From an uncultured Candidatus Saccharibacteria bacterium (GTDB taxonomy: Bacteria > Patescibacteriota > Minisyncoccia > Phycocordibacterales > DATDWN01), in contig CAZNUU010000004.1 in the NCBI GenBank assembly GCA_964576615.1, forward strand, positions 4,663-68,662: a stretch of DNA of 64,000 nt. Reading direction: 5' to 3'. Each line of letters starts with the position of its first letter. The first letter of the stretch is position 1. This document shows positions 6,510-37,914 of this stretch, in pieces. A model generated the notes under the pieces. It did no database searches, had not been told where the DNA came from, and saw only the letters and a program-made list of their open reading frames with translations. Made by a program: the position numbers and the translations under genes.

Positions 6510-6564
6510 AACTTGTGGGGAAATTAAAATGGCTGTTACAGCCATTTTAATTTCCCCACAAGTT
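6510..6564. repeat. Perfect 26-bp palindrome with a 3-nt spacer. It spans the predicted ATG at 6529.
   Basis: acttgtggggaaattaaaatggctg-tta-cagccattttaatttccccacaagt. Confidence 0.8.
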
Positions 6565-31999: not shown

Positions 32000-32491
32000 T
32001 TATCGTCGGTACTCGACGACATTGAACGAGAATTCGTTCTCTTTGTCAGCATCATGTCGAAAGAGGGAGGAGCCGACGTATTCCCTGGGAATTTCTGGGA
32101 AAAATGTGTCACCTCCCTCGATCTCAGTTTCAACGTGGGTTACGACAAGTCGTTCCACGGCAGAAAGGAAGAGTGAGTAAATCTCTCTTCCACCCATCAC
32201 GAAGACTTCGCGTGTTCTTGAGAGTCTTTGAATCTCAGCGAGATGCAGACCCAACATGGTGTGGCAGCCTGCGGCCCTAAATGTCGGGTCGTTGGTCAGG
32301 ACGATGTTCTCTCTACCAGGTAGGGGTTTGTACGCCGCTGGGATTGACTTGTAGGTTTTTCTGCCCATGACAACCACATGACCCATGGTCGTGTTCTTGA
32401 AGTGATCCATGTCTGCCTTGAGGTGCCAAGGGATGTTGTCTTTCTTGCCAATCACACGATTGGCATCCATTGCCACGATAATACTGAGCAT
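32000..32491 (-). CDS. folA: Dihydrofolate reductase. It is GC-rich.
   Basis: The N-terminus MLSIIVAMDANRVIGKKDNIPWHLKADMDHFKNTTMGHVVVMGRKTY matches DHFR. AAGGAG lies 7 nt upstream of the chosen ATG (complement 32489-32491). Confidence 0.8.
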   Translation of the reverse strand: MLSIIVAMDANRVIGKKDNIPWHLKADMDHFKNTTMGHVVVMGRKTYKSIPAAYKPLPGRENIVLTNDPTFRAAGCHTMLGLHLAEIQRLSRTREVFVMGGREIYSLFLSAVERLVVTHVETEIEGGDTFFPEIPREYVGSSLFRHDADKENEFSFNVVEYRR

Positions 32492-32549
32492 GAGAGACTC
32501 CTTTTCTATCGCGATACTACTCTTTATAAAGGCTAGGGTCAATGTTAAG

Positions 32550-34235
32550 ATGAAAGAAATGAAAGATCTCTTAGGATCAGTAATTTTAGAAGAGTTGAAG
32601 GCTCGTGGTGTTGAAAATGCGATAGTGAATTTCGATTACCCAACTCACATGGAAATGGGCGATTTGTCTACTAATGTGGCCATGGTTTCTGCGGGGAAAT
32701 TGAAAACCAGCCCCATCGATTTAGCAAATGAGATAAAAGAGGCAATTCAAATTAAAGGAGTTAAACATATCAAAAGAGTTGATGTGATTAAACCAGGTTT
32801 TATCAATTTTTTCTTTGATGAACATTATTTCGCGAAAAATGTAGATGAGATTTTGAATAAAAAAGAGGAATTTGGGAAAAATAACAGATTTGGTGGAGAG
32901 AAGGTAACTATCGAATATACCGATCCGAATATTTTCAAAGAATTTCATATTGGACACCTAATGCCAAATGTTGTGGGGGAGTCTCTCTCTAGAATAATTG
33001 AAAATAGTGGGGCAAAAGTTAAGAGGGTAAATTATCAAAGTGACATTGGGCTTAATGTTGCAAAGGCGGTCTGGGCAGCCCAGAAAGGGATAAAAGTGGA
33101 AGAAGCCTATGCCTATGGTCATAAAGAGTATGAGGAAAATGAAGAAGCTAAAGGAGAAATTATAGAAATAAACAAAAAGATTTACGAAAAAAGTGATAGT
33201 GAGATAAATAAAATTTACGAAAAAGGGAGAAAGGAGTCACTCAATTATTTCGAGAAGATCTATAAATTGCTTGGTACAAAATTTGATCATTATTTCTTTG
33301 AAAGCGAAGTAGCGGAGTTTGGTAAAGAAACGGTGGAAAAAAATATTGGTAAGGTATTTGAAAAATCCGAAGGTGCCGTTGTCTTCAAAGGTGAAAAATT
33401 CGATAAATCACTTCATACTAGAGTTTTTATCAATAAAGAGAATTTGCCAACTTACGAAGCAAAGGAACTTGGCTTAGCTAAAATAAAATATGATGTTTCG
33501 CCGTATGATTTATCAATAATTGTTACAGGTGACGAGATAAATGAATATTTTAGAGTTTTGATTAAAGCTATGTTATTAGTTTTCCCAGATTTAGCAGCGA
33601 AAACAAAACACATTTCCCACGGAATGCTAAAACTTTCGACTGGCAAGATGTCGTCGAGGACCGGTAATGTTATCACAGCCGAAAGTTTAATTGCTGAGGT
33701 TAAGGAGAAAGTCTTACATAAGATGAAGAACCCTTCTTTATCTGAATATTCAGAAAATTTAGTTAAGGGATTCTCCGAGAGTGAACTCAGTGATATTGCC
33801 GAAGTTGTTTCTATTGGGGCAATAAAATACTCCATCCTTCATCAAGCCATTGGAGGAGATATAATTTTTGATTTCGATAAATCGATTTCATTTGTCGGAG
33901 ACTCTGGTCCCTACCTCCAGTATTCAACTGTTAGAGCTAATTCGATATTAAGAAAATCAGAAGGGAAATCAGGGGAGATGCCGAGTGATTGGGAAACAAC
34001 AAATCTGGAGAGGTTTTTGGAGAGGTTCCCAGGTGTTGTGGAAAAAGCAGGGAAGGAATATGCATCACACTACATTGCGACGTACCTCATTAATTTAGCT
34101 GGAGAATTTAATTCTTTTTATTCTGGTGAAAAGATTTCTGGTTCACCTTATCGTCTGGCTTTAACTGAAGCTTTTATCCAAGTAATGAATTCTGGGCTTT
34201 ATTTACTAGGTATCAAAGTTCCAGAAAGAATGTAA
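32550..34235 (+). CDS. argS: Arginine--tRNA ligase.
   Basis: The HIGH-type motif HIGHLMPNVVGESL is present. The C-terminal DALR domain with SGPYLQYSTVRANSILRK is present. The start was placed at 32550, because the longer ORF would overlap folA. Confidence 0.8.
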   Translation: MKEMKDLLGSVILEELKARGVENAIVNFDYPTHMEMGDLSTNVAMVSAGKLKTSPIDLANEIKEAIQIKGVKHIKRVDVIKPGFINFFFDEHYFAKNVDEILNKKEEFGKNNRFGGEKVTIEYTDPNIFKEFHIGHLMPNVVGESLSRIIENSGAKVKRVNYQSDIGLNVAKAVWAAQKGIKVEEAYAYGHKEYEENEEAKGEIIEINKKIYEKSDSEINKIYEKGRKESLNYFEKIYKLLGTKFDHYFFESEVAEFGKETVEKNIGKVFEKSEGAVVFKGEKFDKSLHTRVFINKENLPTYEAKELGLAKIKYDVSPYDLSIIVTGDEINEYFRVLIKAMLLVFPDLAAKTKHISHGMLKLSTGKMSSRTGNVITAESLIAEVKEKVLHKMKNPSLSEYSENLVKGFSESELSDIAEVVSIGAIKYSILHQAIGGDIIFDFDKSISFVGDSGPYLQYSTVRANSILRKSEGKSGEMPSDWETTNLERFLERFPGVVEKAGKEYASHYIATYLINLAGEFNSFYSGEKISGSPYRLALTEAFIQVMNSGLYLLGIKVPERM

Positions 34236-34261
34236 ATGTGTTATATTGAGGCTATCTAGGA

Positions 34262-34460
34262 GCCTAATCACCTCCGATTAATCGGGAAGAAGTTCGTCTG
34301 ATTTACGAATGTAGAACCCGACGGGTAAGCCCGTTATAGCAGTAATGAGAAACCCTAAGCCTAAACAAGATTACTTGTCGGCCGGGTAAAGCAAGGTGGT
34401 ACCACGGTTCGAGTTATCTCACCGTCCTTGCACGGAGTTTCCGTGTAAGGAATTTTTTAT
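34262..34460 (+). promoter_or_regulatory. Candidate T-box riboswitch leader upstream of ileS.
   Basis: The T-box-like sequence aagcaAGGTGGTACCaCGG lies at 34389-34408. It is followed by the terminator hairpin ccttgcacgg-agttt-ccgtgtaagg and aatttttt at 34427-34458. The leader is short, so stem I is not fully resolved. Confidence 0.5.
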
Positions 34461-34533
34461 TACCTGTCCCGTACTAAATTTTTGATTAGGTAATAAAAAA
34501 TTCATATGAACTGTTTAAAATTTTAGTACTGGG

Positions 34534-37500
34534 ATGGAAAAAGAAGAAAAAAAATTAGGCAAATCAGATGTGGCTTTGAAAGAAGAAGCTATTTTAGAGT
34601 CCTGGCAAAAAAATAGAATATTTGAAAAGACTTTGGAAAAAAATTCCCCGAAGGGTGAGTTTGTTTTTTATGATGGGCCACCTTTTGCCACGGGCTTACC
34701 TCACTACGGTAGTTTACTTGGCTCCATCGCTAAAGATCTTTTTCCGCGTTACAAAACCATGCAAGGCTATTATGTACGCCGTCGCTGGGGCTGGGATTGT
34801 CACGGGCTTCCAATTGAAAATTTGGTGGAAAAGAAATTAGGCCTTAAACACAAAAAAGACATTGAGGTTCTGGGTATAGAGAAATTTAACGAGGAATGTC
34901 GGAGCCAGGTTCTAACTTATGTACACGATTGGAAAAAGTACATTGATCGGGTAGCTCGCTGGGTTGATTTTGATGGCTCCTACAAAACCATGGATGCCAG
35001 TTTTACTGAAAGTGTCTGGTGGGCACTTTCCGAAATGAATGAAAAAGGACTTCTCTACGAAGGTCGTAAGGTCTTACTTTATTGTCCGCACTGCGAAACT
35101 CCTCTGGCCAAGGCCGAGATTGCTATGGATAACTCTTACAAGGACATAACAGAGGAGGCTGTGACAGTAGAATTCAAGCTAAAAGATGACCCTAAGACTT
35201 CTATTCTCGCCTGGACAACAACACCGTGGACTCTCCCAGGTAACGTGGCGTTGGCAGTTCATCCTGATATTGATTACGTAGTAATAGAGAAGAAAGATAT
35301 GGGTGTGGGGGACTTGGTTCGATTTATTCTAGCTAAAAAAAAGCTCGAGGATATTTTTGGTAAAGACGAATATAGGGTTGTTGAAGAAAAAAAAGGAAGG
35401 GATTTAGTTGGCCTTGAATATGAACCTCTCTATGAAATTGAAGCAGTTAAAAAAACAGGTAAAAAAGCTTGGTATGTGACTGGAGCGGATTTTGTTAACA
35501 CGGAAGAGGGAACAGGTGTAGTTCATACAGCTGTAATTTATGGGGAGGACGATTTTAATCTAGGCCAGAAAATTGATTTACCGATGGTGCCCCTACTTTT
35601 GCCAAATGGAAATTTTAACCTGGAGGCACCAGAGTTTATTAGAGGTGTCTATCTAAAAAAAGCAGAGGGTTTGATAAAAGAAGATCTCGAGAAGCGTGGG
35701 CTTTTATTCGATAAGAAAATGAATACCCACTCCTATCCGCATTGTTACAGGTGTGGCACGCCACTCATATACAATGCACTTTCTAGCTGGTTCATTGATG
35801 TTCAGAAGATAAAGGACAAAATAATTTCGACAAACGAAAACATTAATTGGATGCCAGATCACCTGAAACACGGACGTTTTCTAGATATCATGACTAACGC
35901 GCCAGATTGGGCAATAAGCCGAAATCGTTTTTGGGCTTCACCTTTGCCGATTTGGAAAGATAGCCAAGGGAATATAACAGTTGTAAGTGGTTTGGAAGAT
36001 TTGAAAAAGCATCTTAGGAAAACTGGCAATAAATTCTTTTTAATAAGACACGGAGGGTCACTCAGCAATGAAAAAAATGTAAGCAGTTTAGTGCCGGGTG
36101 AAGAAAATGATTGCCTCACGAAAAAAGGCGAAGATCAGGTTAGAAAATCAGCCAAAGAGTTTAAAGACAAGGTTGATTTAATTATTACCTCTAATTTTAG
36201 AAGGACGCAAAAAACAGCCGAAATTTTCGCTGAAGAAAAAGGATTAAGTAAGGAGGATATCGTGGTTGATGATAGCCTGCATGAATTTATTGATGAGGGT
36301 GACCGGGCTGAAAATTATGCAGATGTCAGAAAGAGGATGGTTCATGTTCTCTCGCGTTTAGACAAAGAATATTCGGATAAAAATATTCTGGTCGTTTCTC
36401 ACGAGTATCCATTGCGAGTCCTGCTTTCCTCCCACGAATCTCTCGACGATTTTGAAGAGAGTGAAAACTTTAATAATAAATTTACTTACCTGGATAATGC
36501 CAAAATTACCCCAATAAATTTTATTTCGCTACCCCGAAATATCTTTGCTCAAGTTGATTTTCACCGACCTTATATTGATGAGGTTCAGTTATACAACGAT
36601 ATAGGGGATTCTATATATAGAATTCCGGAGGTAATTGATTGTTGGGTAGAGTCAGGCTCCATGCCTTTTGCAGAATATAATTATCCTTTTGCGCATAAGA
36701 AAGAATTTGAAAAGAGAAGCCCTGCAGATTTTATAGCAGAGTACATACCCCAAACACGTACCTGGTTTTACTATATGCATGTCGTTTCCAACGCTTTGTT
36801 TGGGCATGAAGCATTTAAAAACGTTGTCACGACGGGGAATGTTCTTGCGATAGATGGTAGCAAAATGAGTAAATCAAAAAATAATTATACCGATCCGCTT
36901 ATATTAATGGATAAATTTGGCGCAGATTCGTTACGCTACTATTTGACGACCAGTGTAGTGATGCAAGCAGAAGATTTGGCTTTTTCGGATAAGGATGTGC
37001 AAGAAATTCACCAGAGGCTTCTAAATATTTTGAGAAATGTTGCGGTATTTTACGAGACTTATAAAAGTGATTCAGAGCCAAAATTAAATCACGAGAATGT
37101 TTTAGACAAATGGATATCTATGCGCCTCAAACAATTGAGGGATGAAACCACGGTAAATTTAGATAGATTTGATTCAATCCGAGCTGGCAGACCGCTTAAG
37201 CAGCTTGTGGATGATTTGTCTACTTGGTATTTGAGAAGATCTAGAGAGCGTTTAAAGATGGGCGGAGAAGAGGGGGAGAAAGCACTCCAGCATTTAGCCT
37301 TTATTCTCGGGGAGCTATCAAAGCTTATTGCACCGTTTGTGCCGTATGTTGCTGAGGAAATTTACCAGAAAGTTAAAGGCAAAAGAGGCCTACAAAGTGT
37401 GCATTTAGAAAGTTGGCCAGAAATGAGGGATGTAAATGTTGAACCAGATTTTCTAGCTATCATGTCTAATACCAGAGAAATAGTAACTCAAGCTCTCGAG

Positions 37501-37914
37501 TTAAGGCAGGAGGCTAATATAAAGGTGCGTCAACCCCTGGCGTCACTCACTATTCCTGAGAGTTTGCCAAAAGAGTTTTTGGAAATTTTACGAGATGAAG
37601 TTAATGTCAAAGAGGTAAAAGTTGGTGGTGATTTAAATCTTGATACTAATTTAACCCCCGAACTTCTCGCGGAGGGGCTGGTACGGGATGTTATAAGAGG
37701 GATTCAAGATGTGAGAAAAACAGAAGGTTTAAATCCAAATCAAAAGATAAAGATAGTTGCTCATGCCGATAAGGAGTTAGAAAAAATGATTAATTCAAAT
37801 TTAAGCCAAATTAAACAGCCGACTCAGGTATCTGGCGTTTCTTTCTCGAGAGAAGAACAAAAACATAAAATTGCACTTGAAAAAAACAAACTCTCTGTTT
37901 CAATAGAGAAGTAA
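34534..37914 (+). CDS. ileS: Isoleucine--tRNA ligase with an inserted histidine-phosphatase (PGAM-like) domain.
   Basis: The HIGH-class motif PHYGS and the KMSKS motif are present. WAISRNRFWASPLPIW is present. The insert between that and DCWVESGSMPFA carries FLIRHGGSLSNEKN and VVSHEYPLRVLL, which are the RHG and SH motifs of histidine phosphatases. Confidence 0.85.
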   Translation: MEKEEKKLGKSDVALKEEAILESWQKNRIFEKTLEKNSPKGEFVFYDGPPFATGLPHYGSLLGSIAKDLFPRYKTMQGYYVRRRWGWDCHGLPIENLVEKKLGLKHKKDIEVLGIEKFNEECRSQVLTYVHDWKKYIDRVARWVDFDGSYKTMDASFTESVWWALSEMNEKGLLYEGRKVLLYCPHCETPLAKAEIAMDNSYKDITEEAVTVEFKLKDDPKTSILAWTTTPWTLPGNVALAVHPDIDYVVIEKKDMGVGDLVRFILAKKKLEDIFGKDEYRVVEEKKGRDLVGLEYEPLYEIEAVKKTGKKAWYVTGADFVNTEEGTGVVHTAVIYGEDDFNLGQKIDLPMVPLLLPNGNFNLEAPEFIRGVYLKKAEGLIKEDLEKRGLLFDKKMNTHSYPHCYRCGTPLIYNALSSWFIDVQKIKDKIISTNENINWMPDHLKHGRFLDIMTNAPDWAISRNRFWASPLPIWKDSQGNITVVSGLEDLKKHLRKTGNKFFLIRHGGSLSNEKNVSSLVPGEENDCLTKKGEDQVRKSAKEFKDKVDLIITSNFRRTQKTAEIFAEEKGLSKEDIVVDDSLHEFIDEGDRAENYADVRKRMVHVLSRLDKEYSDKNILVVSHEYPLRVLLSSHESLDDFEESENFNNKFTYLDNAKITPINFISLPRNIFAQVDFHRPYIDEVQLYNDIGDSIYRIPEVIDCWVESGSMPFAEYNYPFAHKKEFEKRSPADFIAEYIPQTRTWFYYMHVVSNALFGHEAFKNVVTTGNVLAIDGSKMSKSKNNYTDPLILMDKFGADSLRYYLTTSVVMQAEDLAFSDKDVQEIHQRLLNILRNVAVFYETYKSDSEPKLNHENVLDKWISMRLKQLRDETTVNLDRFDSIRAGRPLKQLVDDLSTWYLRRSRERLKMGGEEGEKALQHLAFILGELSKLIAPFVPYVAEEIYQKVKGKRGLQSVHLESWPEMRDVNVEPDFLAIMSNTREIVTQALELRQEANIKVRQPLASLTIPESLPKEFLEILRDEVNVKEVKVGGDLNLDTNLTPELLAEGLVRDVIRGIQDVRKTEGLNPNQKIKIVAHADKELEKMINSNLSQIKQPTQVSGVSFSREEQKHKIALEKNKLSVSIEK

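Follow-up and report, generated by a model that had tools for sequence, protein, structure and literature searches.

The 298-nt spacer between argS and ileS, two aminoacyl-tRNA synthetase genes on contig CAZNUU010000004.1, contains an element (34254-34458) that is very probably a reduced, tRNA-Ile-responsive T-box riboswitch controlling ileS by transcription attenuation. Here, positions refer to the window, i.e., the whole stretch of 64 kb that was analysed. T-boxes serve as a model of RNA-RNA recognition and are an antibiotic target. The spacer length given in a preliminary description of this DNA was borne out by the ends of the two open reading frames (ORFs) (argS ending at 34235 and ileS starting at 34534), and the spacer as a whole folds far better than shuffled sequences (z = -5.6). 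The genes and features of the locus are as follows.

32409-34235, forward strand: argS (arginine--tRNA ligase), the upstream neighbour, from the ORF list (NCBIfam TIGR00456, 313.7 bits; stop codon TAA at 34233-34235).
34239-34247, forward strand: predicted extended -10 promoter TGtTATATT (TGTTATATT), placed by its fixed position across relatives.
34254-34278, forward strand: ultrashort Stem I, AUC-ua-GGAG CCUAAUCAC CUCC-GAU, from the class model pairing, with a covarying upper helix.
34267-34270, forward strand: specifier codon AUC (Ile) and conserved 3' purine A in the apical loop of Stem I, from the alignment of relatives.
34283-34320, forward strand: Stem II, with base helix CGGG (34283-34286) and CCCG (34317-34320), and upper helix GUUCGU (34292-34297) and ACGAAU (34305-34310).
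34322-34336, forward strand: Stem IIA hairpin and F-box, with CGGG (34322-34325), loop UAAG, CCCG (34330-34333) and F-box CCGUUA (34331-34336).
34337-34351, forward strand: linker with a purine string (UAGCAGUAAUGAGAA), kept as AGCnGUAAUGAGAAG in relatives.
34352-34387, forward strand: Stem III, outer ACCC/GGGU and inner GCC/GGC and CAAG/CUUG, from the minimum-free-energy fold of the spacer.
34392-34430, forward strand: antiterminator, with helix A1 (CAAGG 34392-34396 and CCUUG 34426-34430), bulge UGGUACC (34397-34403) and helix A2 (ACGGU 34404-34408 and ACCGU 34421-34425).
34425-34458, forward strand: intrinsic terminator of 12 bp (34425-34436 with 34440-34451) and 3-nt loop GUU, then A and six U (34453-34458).
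34450-34503, forward strand: perfect 16-bp inverted repeat GAAUUUUUUAUUACCU / AGGUAAUAAAAAAUUC (34450-34465 with 34488-34503) with a 22-nt loop, containing the U-tract.
34464-34537, forward strand: long hairpin pairing the ileS AUG, with a 15-bp outer stem (34464-34478 with 34522-34537, one bulge), from the minimum-free-energy fold.
34534-37914, forward strand: ileS (isoleucine--tRNA ligase, 1126 aa), the gene that would be regulated (NCBIfam TIGR00392, 803 bits).

The T-box core AAGCAAGGTGGTACCACGG lies at 34389-34407, and with it the T-box consensus and UGGU bulge of the preliminary description were recovered. A degenerate pattern of this core (AANNNRGGTGGNACCRCG) gave a single match in the 64 kb, with 0 mismatches, while shuffled sequences gave a mean of 0.03 even with one mismatch allowed. 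When set against the consensus AGGGUGGNACCGCG, the stretch AAGGUGGUACCACG at 34393-34406 agrees at 12 of 14 positions, and both deviations, by our reading of the fold, keep standard pairs in A1 or A2. Folding of 34390-34430 gives the antiterminator as the structure of minimum free energy (-10.8 kcal/mol), and the UGGU of its bulge (34397-34400) would fit the ACCA end, with A73, of general bacterial tRNA-Ile. The terminator folds at -19.0 kcal/mol (z = -5.98); its core arms, CCTTGCACGG (34426-34435) and CCGTGTAAGG (34441-34450), form the 10-bp hairpin quoted previously, which we extended to 12 bp and found to be followed by A and six T. Here, we noticed that the two structures compete for CCUUG at 34426-34430 (the overlap being 34425/6-34430, UCCUUG): the 5' arm of the terminator is 34425-34436, and formation of either helix takes CCUUG away from the other. 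Both energies lie inside the ranges for 22,524 putative transcriptional T-boxes (-7.4 ± 4.2 kcal/mol for antiterminators and -19.5 ± 7.9 kcal/mol for terminators; TBDB preprint). In a simple scan of 20 kb, this terminator also ranks by strength in the top five terminator-like sites, and its T run is the longest of the five; the scan is informative for the strongest sites only, as its total was not above that of shuffles (21 vs 17.8).

To place the leader among relatives, a DNA pattern from the Stem II/IIA region was used, which led to 58 metagenomic contigs and 38 unique leaders. From 18 aligned ileS leaders of the candidate phyla radiation (CPR), with the present leader excluded, we built a covariance model (R1) in which Stem I (lower and upper), Stem II, Stem IIA, Stem III, A1 and A2 were annotated. 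This model matched 34241-34430 at 83.1 bits (E = 2.1e-17), the next match in the 64 kb having E = 0.2, and its run on 88 sources gave 58 leaders. In the alignment of these leaders, which was fitted to the model and hence favours structure, 95.1% of the pair cells were standard, compared with 54% when the partners were slid by one column; double changes were seen at 21 of 24 pairs, and none of 500 shuffles reached the observed values. Even so, the result with slid partners and the range of pair types seen (CG, UA, GC and AU at the Stem II base, for example) argue that the conservation is real. For A1 and A2, 99-100% of the cells were paired, with double changes at all 8 pairs. A hairpin equivalent to the terminator is found in the relatives (RNAalifold: 18 pairs, 13 with compensatory changes), its 5' arm being the 3' strand of A2 and A1. 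In all complete GGUGGUACC-type relatives, this hairpin has about -13 to -33 kcal/mol (all but one -19 to -33) and is followed by 5-8 U, with a gap from the U-run to the AUG of 0-50 nt (0-30 nt in most and 0-16 nt in many).

Most CPR-type leaders scored 60-149 bits with R1, those of the GGAUGG type and a few divergent ones 32-75 bits, the Actinomyces/Schaalia leaders 33-55 bits and the Bacilli leaders 21-42 bits, while no match was obtained in the ileS loci scanned from Chloroflexi, Kryptonia, Bacteroidota, Ignavibacteriaceae and archaea. A second group of ileS leaders (L081, L088, L089, L094, L096, L107, L114, L127, L128, L135 and L015) has the same short AUC Stem I and a GGAUGGUACC-type T-box with a different downstream arrangement. 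Several of these have AGGAG before the start and a hairpin reusing the Stem III region, a simple search called no terminator in 9 of the 11, and the group may use a different output mechanism.

The Rfam model RF00230 aligned end to end (model positions 1-219) at 34234-34432, with 74 unshown consensus positions of Stem I reduced to 17 nt, and scored the leader at 35.1 bits (E = 2.2e-6 locally), which is below the gathering score of 93 bits. The preliminary description had named two outcomes that would jointly speak against a T-box, a score below this threshold and the lack of a mutually exclusive antiterminator; the first was found, but not the second, as an antiterminator sharing CCUUG with the terminator could be drawn. 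Five other CPR ileS loci likewise remained under the threshold (61.1, 52.6, 47.3, 45.0 and 29.9 bits), as did ten more metagenomic relatives (59-71 bits), so all 15 CPR relatives tested fail the cut-off. Among four ileS leaders from Actinomyces/Schaalia, which we take to be of the short-Stem-I class known from other Actinobacteria, one scored 36 bits and three were undetected, whereas the ileS leaders of Bacilli scored 85-118 bits. The cut-off, which derives from seed sequences with a long Stem I, is thus non-discriminating for the reduced class, and since the actinobacterial and CPR control leaders fail likewise, we did not count the Rfam failure as a refutation. In fact, apart from this cut-off and a long Stem I, the element has every T-box hallmark that could be tested.

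The decoding half of the leader begins with Stem I, whose core helix (GGAG 34259-34262 with CUCC 34272-34275) carries a 9-nt apical loop (CCUAAUCAC); AUC 34254-34256 can also pair with GAU 34276-34278, making Stem I 4-7 bp. An AUC or AUU specifier had been suggested earlier for an apical loop, with the codon itself left unplaced, and we located it as AUC 34267-34269, followed by A34270, in this loop. The ATC is invariant in both 18-leader alignments, and the ileS leaders in the 58-leader table show the apical loop as NNAUCR, with a compensating 4-bp helix below. Bacterial tRNA-Ile has a GAU anticodon and an A73 discriminator. Moreover, all 38 AUC-loop leaders with enough downstream DNA precede IleRS, a small ORF intervening in four (L124 8004-8180, reverse strand; L092 623-837; L111 7568-7782, reverse strand; and L129 1171-1389), and no leader whose non-AUC loop aligned well had IleRS downstream. 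Within the class, leaders with an AAC or GAC apical loop (L119 8818-9005, reverse strand; L102 1144-1331; L117 1122-1299; L093; L106; and L137) precede AspRS-type genes, the AAC leader of L119 preceding a non-discriminating AspRS (aspartate--tRNA(Asn) ligase model, 437 bits) and the GAC leader of L117 an AspRS fragment. Their bulge is UGGC, the G73 type, in L093, L102, L119 and L137 (both AAC leaders and the GAC leader L093 among them), and UGGU in the GAC leaders L106 and L117. Judged from the alignments, this agreement of codon with gene would be the strongest functional evidence that can be had short of experiment.

As side observations on these loci, the small ORF between the AUC leader and ileS in L124 encodes an 86-aa membrane-like protein, and the leaders of L138 and L112 precede two mutually homologous ORFs, that of L138 having no NCBIfam match. 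An alternative specifier in the present leader, AUC 34254-34256, was rejected. The fold of 34248-34278 prefers a hairpin (AGGCU/AGCCU) with a 7-nt loop starting with this AUC, but the alignment puts the invariant AUC at 34267-34269, the loop position misfits NNAUCR, and the predicted start site would leave the 5' arm of AGGCU/AGCCU untranscribed.

Across relatives, the upper Stem I helix is exchanged as GGGG/CCCC, GAGG/CCUC, GGAG/CUCC, AGAG/CUCU and GCGG/CCGC. Typical class members have in addition a lower helix (AAGC with GCUU), a kink-turn (K-turn; GUUGAA ... NGA) and a 6-nt loop. In the Stem I of the present leader (~25 nt) there is no K-turn, no GA motif and no distal tRNA-elbow platform, and the lower helix is not formed, with 3 of 4 pairs non-standard at the model-assigned 34249-34252 and 34279-34282. 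The K-turn is likewise absent in L001, L010, L021, L099 and L134, and present in most other CPR members. These five K-turn-less relatives have a loop of 7-9 nt (9 nt in four), and the K-turn-less helices compensate (GGAG/CUCC in this leader and L010; AGAG/CUCU in L021, L099 and L134), which points to selection.

The predicted promoter is consistent with this shortened Stem I. In about 22 related leaders, TGnTAnnnT begins exactly 17 nt 5' of the Stem I base, and only 10-11 nt 5' of the corresponding model position in this leader and L010, a shift of offset that matches the missing lower Stem I helix. Transcription probably starts at ~34253-34256, directly after the argS stop, and the strand of the lower helix would then be untranscribed. 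Such a shift would fit a leader that has lost its K-turn, and it speaks for a shortened Stem I that is being maintained and against decay. A two-hexamer sigma-70 scan gave no forward-strand promoter in the spacer, the extended -10 element being visible only via relatives. The start of the element at 34262, as given in the preliminary description, is accordingly too late, with Stem I beginning at ~34254 and the predicted -10 element at 34239-34247.

Stem II follows with a base helix that is 99.6% paired in the alignment and shows CG, UA, GC and AU exchanges, and an upper helix that compensates among relatives (GCA/UGC, GCC/GGC, UCC/GGA, GGA/UCC and UCU/AGA). Between them, AAGAA (34287-34291) faces GUAGAA (34311-34316) in an S-turn-like arrangement, assigned by motif (AGUA/GAA) only. 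Stem IIA and the F-box align to the Rfam T-box consensus CGguuauuucCGUUA, the Stem IIA helix being 98% paired yet nearly invariant, and a by-eye covariation check of the 18-leader alignments did not establish the IIB pseudoknot, i.e., pairs from the Stem IIA loop to the linker. The purine string of the linker would correspond, by analogy, to the RRRxG string 5' of Stem III (PMC7583486).

Stem III is of variable length among relatives and absent in at least eight; no such hairpin was seen in L021, L082, L084, L085, L087, L099, L109, L116 and L134. In the leaders that lack it, ~12-24 nt lie between the F-box linker and the T-box, and the flanking purines AGAAG-U-AA are kept. Hairpin-like insertions are frequent in related leaders, some of them duplicated between Stem II and Stem III. 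For instance, one ~41-nt segment is present in Stem II and Stem III alike in L129 (1171-1389), L090 has GATCCTGAAACAAGTTCAG in both stems, L086 (8487-8673, reverse strand) and L124 (8004-8180, reverse strand) have CCGCCGTCGTTAAAACTATGGCG in common, and L120 was grouped among the leaders with reused insertions. These look like small mobile palindromic elements.

Among known systems, the actinobacterial translational T-boxes have an apical-loop specifier on a short Stem I, and those of ileS are represented by Mycobacterium tuberculosis, M. smegmatis and Nocardia farcinica (PDB 6UFG and 6UFM; PMC7583486). The K-turn at the base of Stem I is reported to be required if short Stem I/Stem II constructs are to bind tRNA, and Stem III is regarded as indispensable (PMC7583486). 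Our leader resembles this type in having a very short Stem I with AUC and a purine in its apical loop, no elbow platform, Stem II (with the S-turn motif GGAAGAA ... UAGAAC) leading directly into Stem IIA/F-box, and the same UGGUACC bulge. The presumed target is similar as well, the N-terminal 400 aa of IleRS being 38-46% identical to IleRS of Actinomyces and Schaalia, whose leaders align motif for motif and are found by the CPR model. The likeness to reduced actinobacterial ileS T-boxes noted in the preliminary description hence holds for the decoding half. In contrast, the output here is a hairpin with a U-tract and not a Shine-Dalgarno sequestrator (the Actinomyces/Schaalia leaders are without a U-run), the hosts are CPR bacteria (Paceibacterota-like) of ~40% G+C with genes largely devoid of Shine-Dalgarno sequences, and the K-turn is absent from this leader.

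With the transcriptional T-boxes of Bacillota (B. subtilis tyrS and glyQS; RF00230), the leader shares the T-box sequence, the competition of antiterminator and terminator, the U-tract, fold energies in the usual range, and Stems II, IIA (with a putative IIB) and III as in tyrS-type leaders. It differs from them in a Stem I of ~25 rather than ~90 nt, without distal loops, AG bulge or K-turn, in a specifier placed in a terminal and not an internal loop, and in its low RF00230 score relative to the Bacilli ileS leaders (35 vs 85-118 bits). More closely, the leader is a member, at 83 bits, of the reduced CPR class defined by R1 (L001, L010, L021, L023, L024 and ~40 metagenomic contigs), with which it has in common the promoter motif, apical AUC, Stem II/IIA, purine linker, T-box, and terminator with U-run. 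Unlike most members, it has no lower Stem I helix, no K-turn, a 9-nt rather than 6-nt loop, and 75 nt with two extra hairpins before the AUG instead of 0-30 nt. The class itself departs from the known background in coupling a short decoder to a terminator, in having a K-turn-less sub-family, and in its Stem III-less members.

In the proposed mechanism, transcription would start at ~34254 from the extended -10 element right after the argS stop, and the apical loop of Stem I (4-7 bp stem) would offer AUC 34267-34269 to the GAU anticodon. The Stem II S-turn and Stem IIA/F-box may brace the codon-anticodon helix and so replace the elbow platform, as in actinobacterial ileS T-boxes. With uncharged tRNA, the 3' ACCA would pair with UGGU 34397-34400, A1 and A2 would be stabilised, and polymerase would read into ileS. 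When the tRNA is charged or absent, UCCUUG 34425-34430 would join the 12-bp terminator (34425-34451), and transcription would stop in the U-tract at ~34456-34458. Ample isoleucine would thus most likely lead to early termination. On sequence grounds, we conclude that the primary output is likely intrinsic termination, not translational control. Such an element introduces no new principle; it joins a decoder of known type to a different output, in a more reduced form and in a new lineage.

From the U-tract to the ileS AUG runs a tail specific to this window. Its perfect 16-bp repeat, overlooked in the preliminary description, folds at -16.0 kcal/mol (z = -5.4) and is exceeded in length by only one other spaced perfect inverted repeat of the 64 kb. 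The alternative long hairpin has an outer stem that pairs the AUG (A34534, U34535 and G34536) and the 12 nt before it, and folds at -24.5 kcal/mol (z = -3.9) for 34450-34545 or -21.4 kcal/mol (z = -5.0) for 34466-34545. These two structures cannot nest, and neither shares a strand with the antiterminator. Part of the long hairpin had been described before as an 8-9-bp repeat at 34471-34529; it does end 4 nt before the ATG, but is 8 bp perfect and not 9 (GTACTAAA 34471-34478 / TTTAGTAC 34522-34529). The extra translational control proposed for it is structurally possible, in that the stem pairs the AUG, though no relative shares this stem. The segment 34450-34533 has no copies elsewhere in the window, and so is not a local repeat family, and is absent from the relatives. 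A role of the tail in translation or stability is speculation, and passive insertion is a fair alternative. A six-codon ORF (34506-34526: ATG AAC TGT TTA AAA TTT TAG) and a TAAAAT hexamer (34516-34521, 12 nt 5' of the ileS ATG) are also found in the tail, and either could be chance.

Several points weigh against tRNA-responsive attenuation at this locus. Transcriptional T-boxes generally need a long Stem I platform for fast tRNA capture (PMC7583486), and an ultrashort Stem I coupled to a terminator runs counter to that expectation. This leader has neither a K-turn nor a lower Stem I helix, its R1 score is 83 bits compared with 100-149 for most relatives, and the pair at the foot of A2 is A-U, the canonical one being G-U. 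Moreover, terminator and antiterminator overlap by just 5-6 nt and A2 can persist in the terminated fold, while 75 nt of structured RNA separate the U-tract from the AUG, compared with 0-50 nt in the relatives. As scans of the window and of 40 related loci found no tRNA-Ile gene, the match to anticodon and discriminator rests on general knowledge of tRNA-Ile. A rival reading is a T-box that acts on translation, with the hairpin 34425-34451 or the AUG-pairing hairpin as a sequestrator of the initiation region. The decoding half is of the actinobacterial type, an ultrashort Stem I has been tied to translational control (PMC7583486), the stem of 34464-34478 with 34522-34537 pairs the AUG, and in many relatives the hairpin and U-run lie 0-16 nt from the AUG, which would put a re-formed hairpin within the ribosome footprint. 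We nevertheless consider this unlikely, given that six U follow the hairpin here and 5-8 U in all complete relatives (with none in Actinomyces/Schaalia), and that the switchable hairpin has no Shine-Dalgarno sequence inside and ends 82 nt before the AUG. In fact, upstream of the first ATG of the window's long ORFs, Shine-Dalgarno-like motifs are at background level (5 of 31 starts vs 14%), so there is no such sequence to sequester, and it is not obvious how tRNA binding would flip the AUG-pairing hairpin, which has no strand in common with the antiterminator. A re-formed hairpin could also hinder initiation in relatives, which is not directly applicable here with 75 nt between. Doubtful, but compatible with attenuation, is a second, tRNA-independent layer in which 34450-34537 switches between two hairpins, that of 16 bp with the AUG free and the longer one with the AUG paired, and would tune how well read-through mRNA is translated or how stable it is. 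Both folds greatly exceed those of shuffled sequences in stability and cannot nest, and the 16-nt repeat stands out in the 64 kb for its length; on the other side, a segment found in no relative offers neither covariation nor conservation, the hairpin-like insertions of related leaders look like passive passengers, and such stems form easily in AT-rich sequence.

A decaying relic that binds no tRNA, whose terminator merely ends argS transcripts while ileS is served by a downstream promoter (e.g., TAAAAT 34516-34521), would account for the unformed lower helix (3 of 4 pairs flagged), the missing K-turn motif and an R1 score among the lower ones of the ileS leaders of the class, and -10-like hexamers do stand 6-10 nt before the ATG in many window genes, the TAAAAT being 12 nt before that of ileS. 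However, the conserved nucleotides are all intact in the specifier loop, S-turn, F-box, purine string and T-box bulge, five relatives have the same K-turn-less architecture with compensating helices, implying selection, and the conserved promoter motif moved in step with the shortened Stem I, all of which makes decay very unlikely. As for a chance resemblance, with an ordinary argS terminator adjoining a GGTGGTACC string, the RF00230 score below the gathering cut-off speaks for it, but the leave-one-out class model (E = 2e-17), the full set of modules in canonical order, and homologous leaders at the same position in many genomes speak against it. We regard this as hardly credible, and indeed as refuted by the class-model match and the covariation across 58 leaders.

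With attenuation by a reduced T-box as the preferred explanation, the leader also bears on T-box regulation in CPR bacteria at large. The preliminary description supposed that T-box regulation would be noteworthy in such a genome; T-boxes are, however, not rare in CPR, the same class occurring in dozens of metagenomic contigs. No paper came up in a full-text literature search that combined T-box with CPR, Patescibacteria, Parcubacteria or Saccharibacteria, though comparative T-box papers (Sherwood 2015; Vitreschak 2008) may hold a prior description. We tentatively suggest, with a little less than even probability, a widespread and so far undescribed CPR class of ~135-190 nt with an apical specifier on an ultrashort Stem I, some members without K-turn and others without Stem III, and intrinsic-terminator output, often abutting starts without a Shine-Dalgarno sequence. 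In that case, tRNA could be sensed co-transcriptionally with no need for an elbow platform, K-turn or Stem III, which are now regarded as essential, and this leader would be among the most reduced natural T-boxes. An actinobacterial-style minimal decoder joined to a classical terminator would offer natural test cases for minimal T-box needs, and those members that drop the K-turn or Stem III yet keep the flanking purines bear on open questions about the minimal T-box. As the Rfam threshold misses the whole class, T-box regulation in CPR bacteria is probably under-annotated. It would also appear that tiny CPR genomes, presumably living on imported amino acids, still use tRNA charging as a signal for how much of an aminoacyl-tRNA synthetase to make, and that relatives apply the same control to AspRS and some membrane proteins.

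As regards the surrounding locus, the argS-ileS order with a T-box between is also found in L001, L021, L122 and L134. The agreement of the ileS product with relatives begins at its first residues, and the nearest IleRS sequences (GTDB genomes) are from metagenome-assembled genomes mostly labelled CPR/Patescibacteria, foremost Candidatus Paceibacterota with 81% and 75% identity, followed by Uhrbacteria, Kaiserbacteria and Magasanikbacteria with 58-68% identity. Residues ~495-690 of IleRS (36016-36600 in the ORF 34534-37914) form an inserted domain of ~190 aa of the histidine-phosphatase / phosphoglycerate-mutase family, with an RHG signature (FFLIRHGGSLSNEKN) and a dPGM_arch match (E = 8.8e-16). 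This insert is absent in L003, L004, L016 and L019 (lengths of 983-1017 aa), and homologous inserts with 30-39% identity are present in L001, L002, L005, L014, L021, L023 and L024. Elsewhere in the window, a TATAAT-like hexamer stands merely 6-10 nt 5' of the ATG in many ORFs, such gene starts being 8793 (reverse strand), 12364, 17240, 24688, 38656, 40575, 41927 and 57837; this suggests that leaderless mRNAs are common in the genome, among which an ileS leader of ~280 nt would be exceptional. The longest inverted repeat of the window is a perfect palindrome of 27 + 27 nt at 6510-6564 (AACTTGTGGGGAAATTAAAATGGCTGT / ACAGCCATTTTAATTTCCCCACAAGTT), with its arms 1 nt apart.

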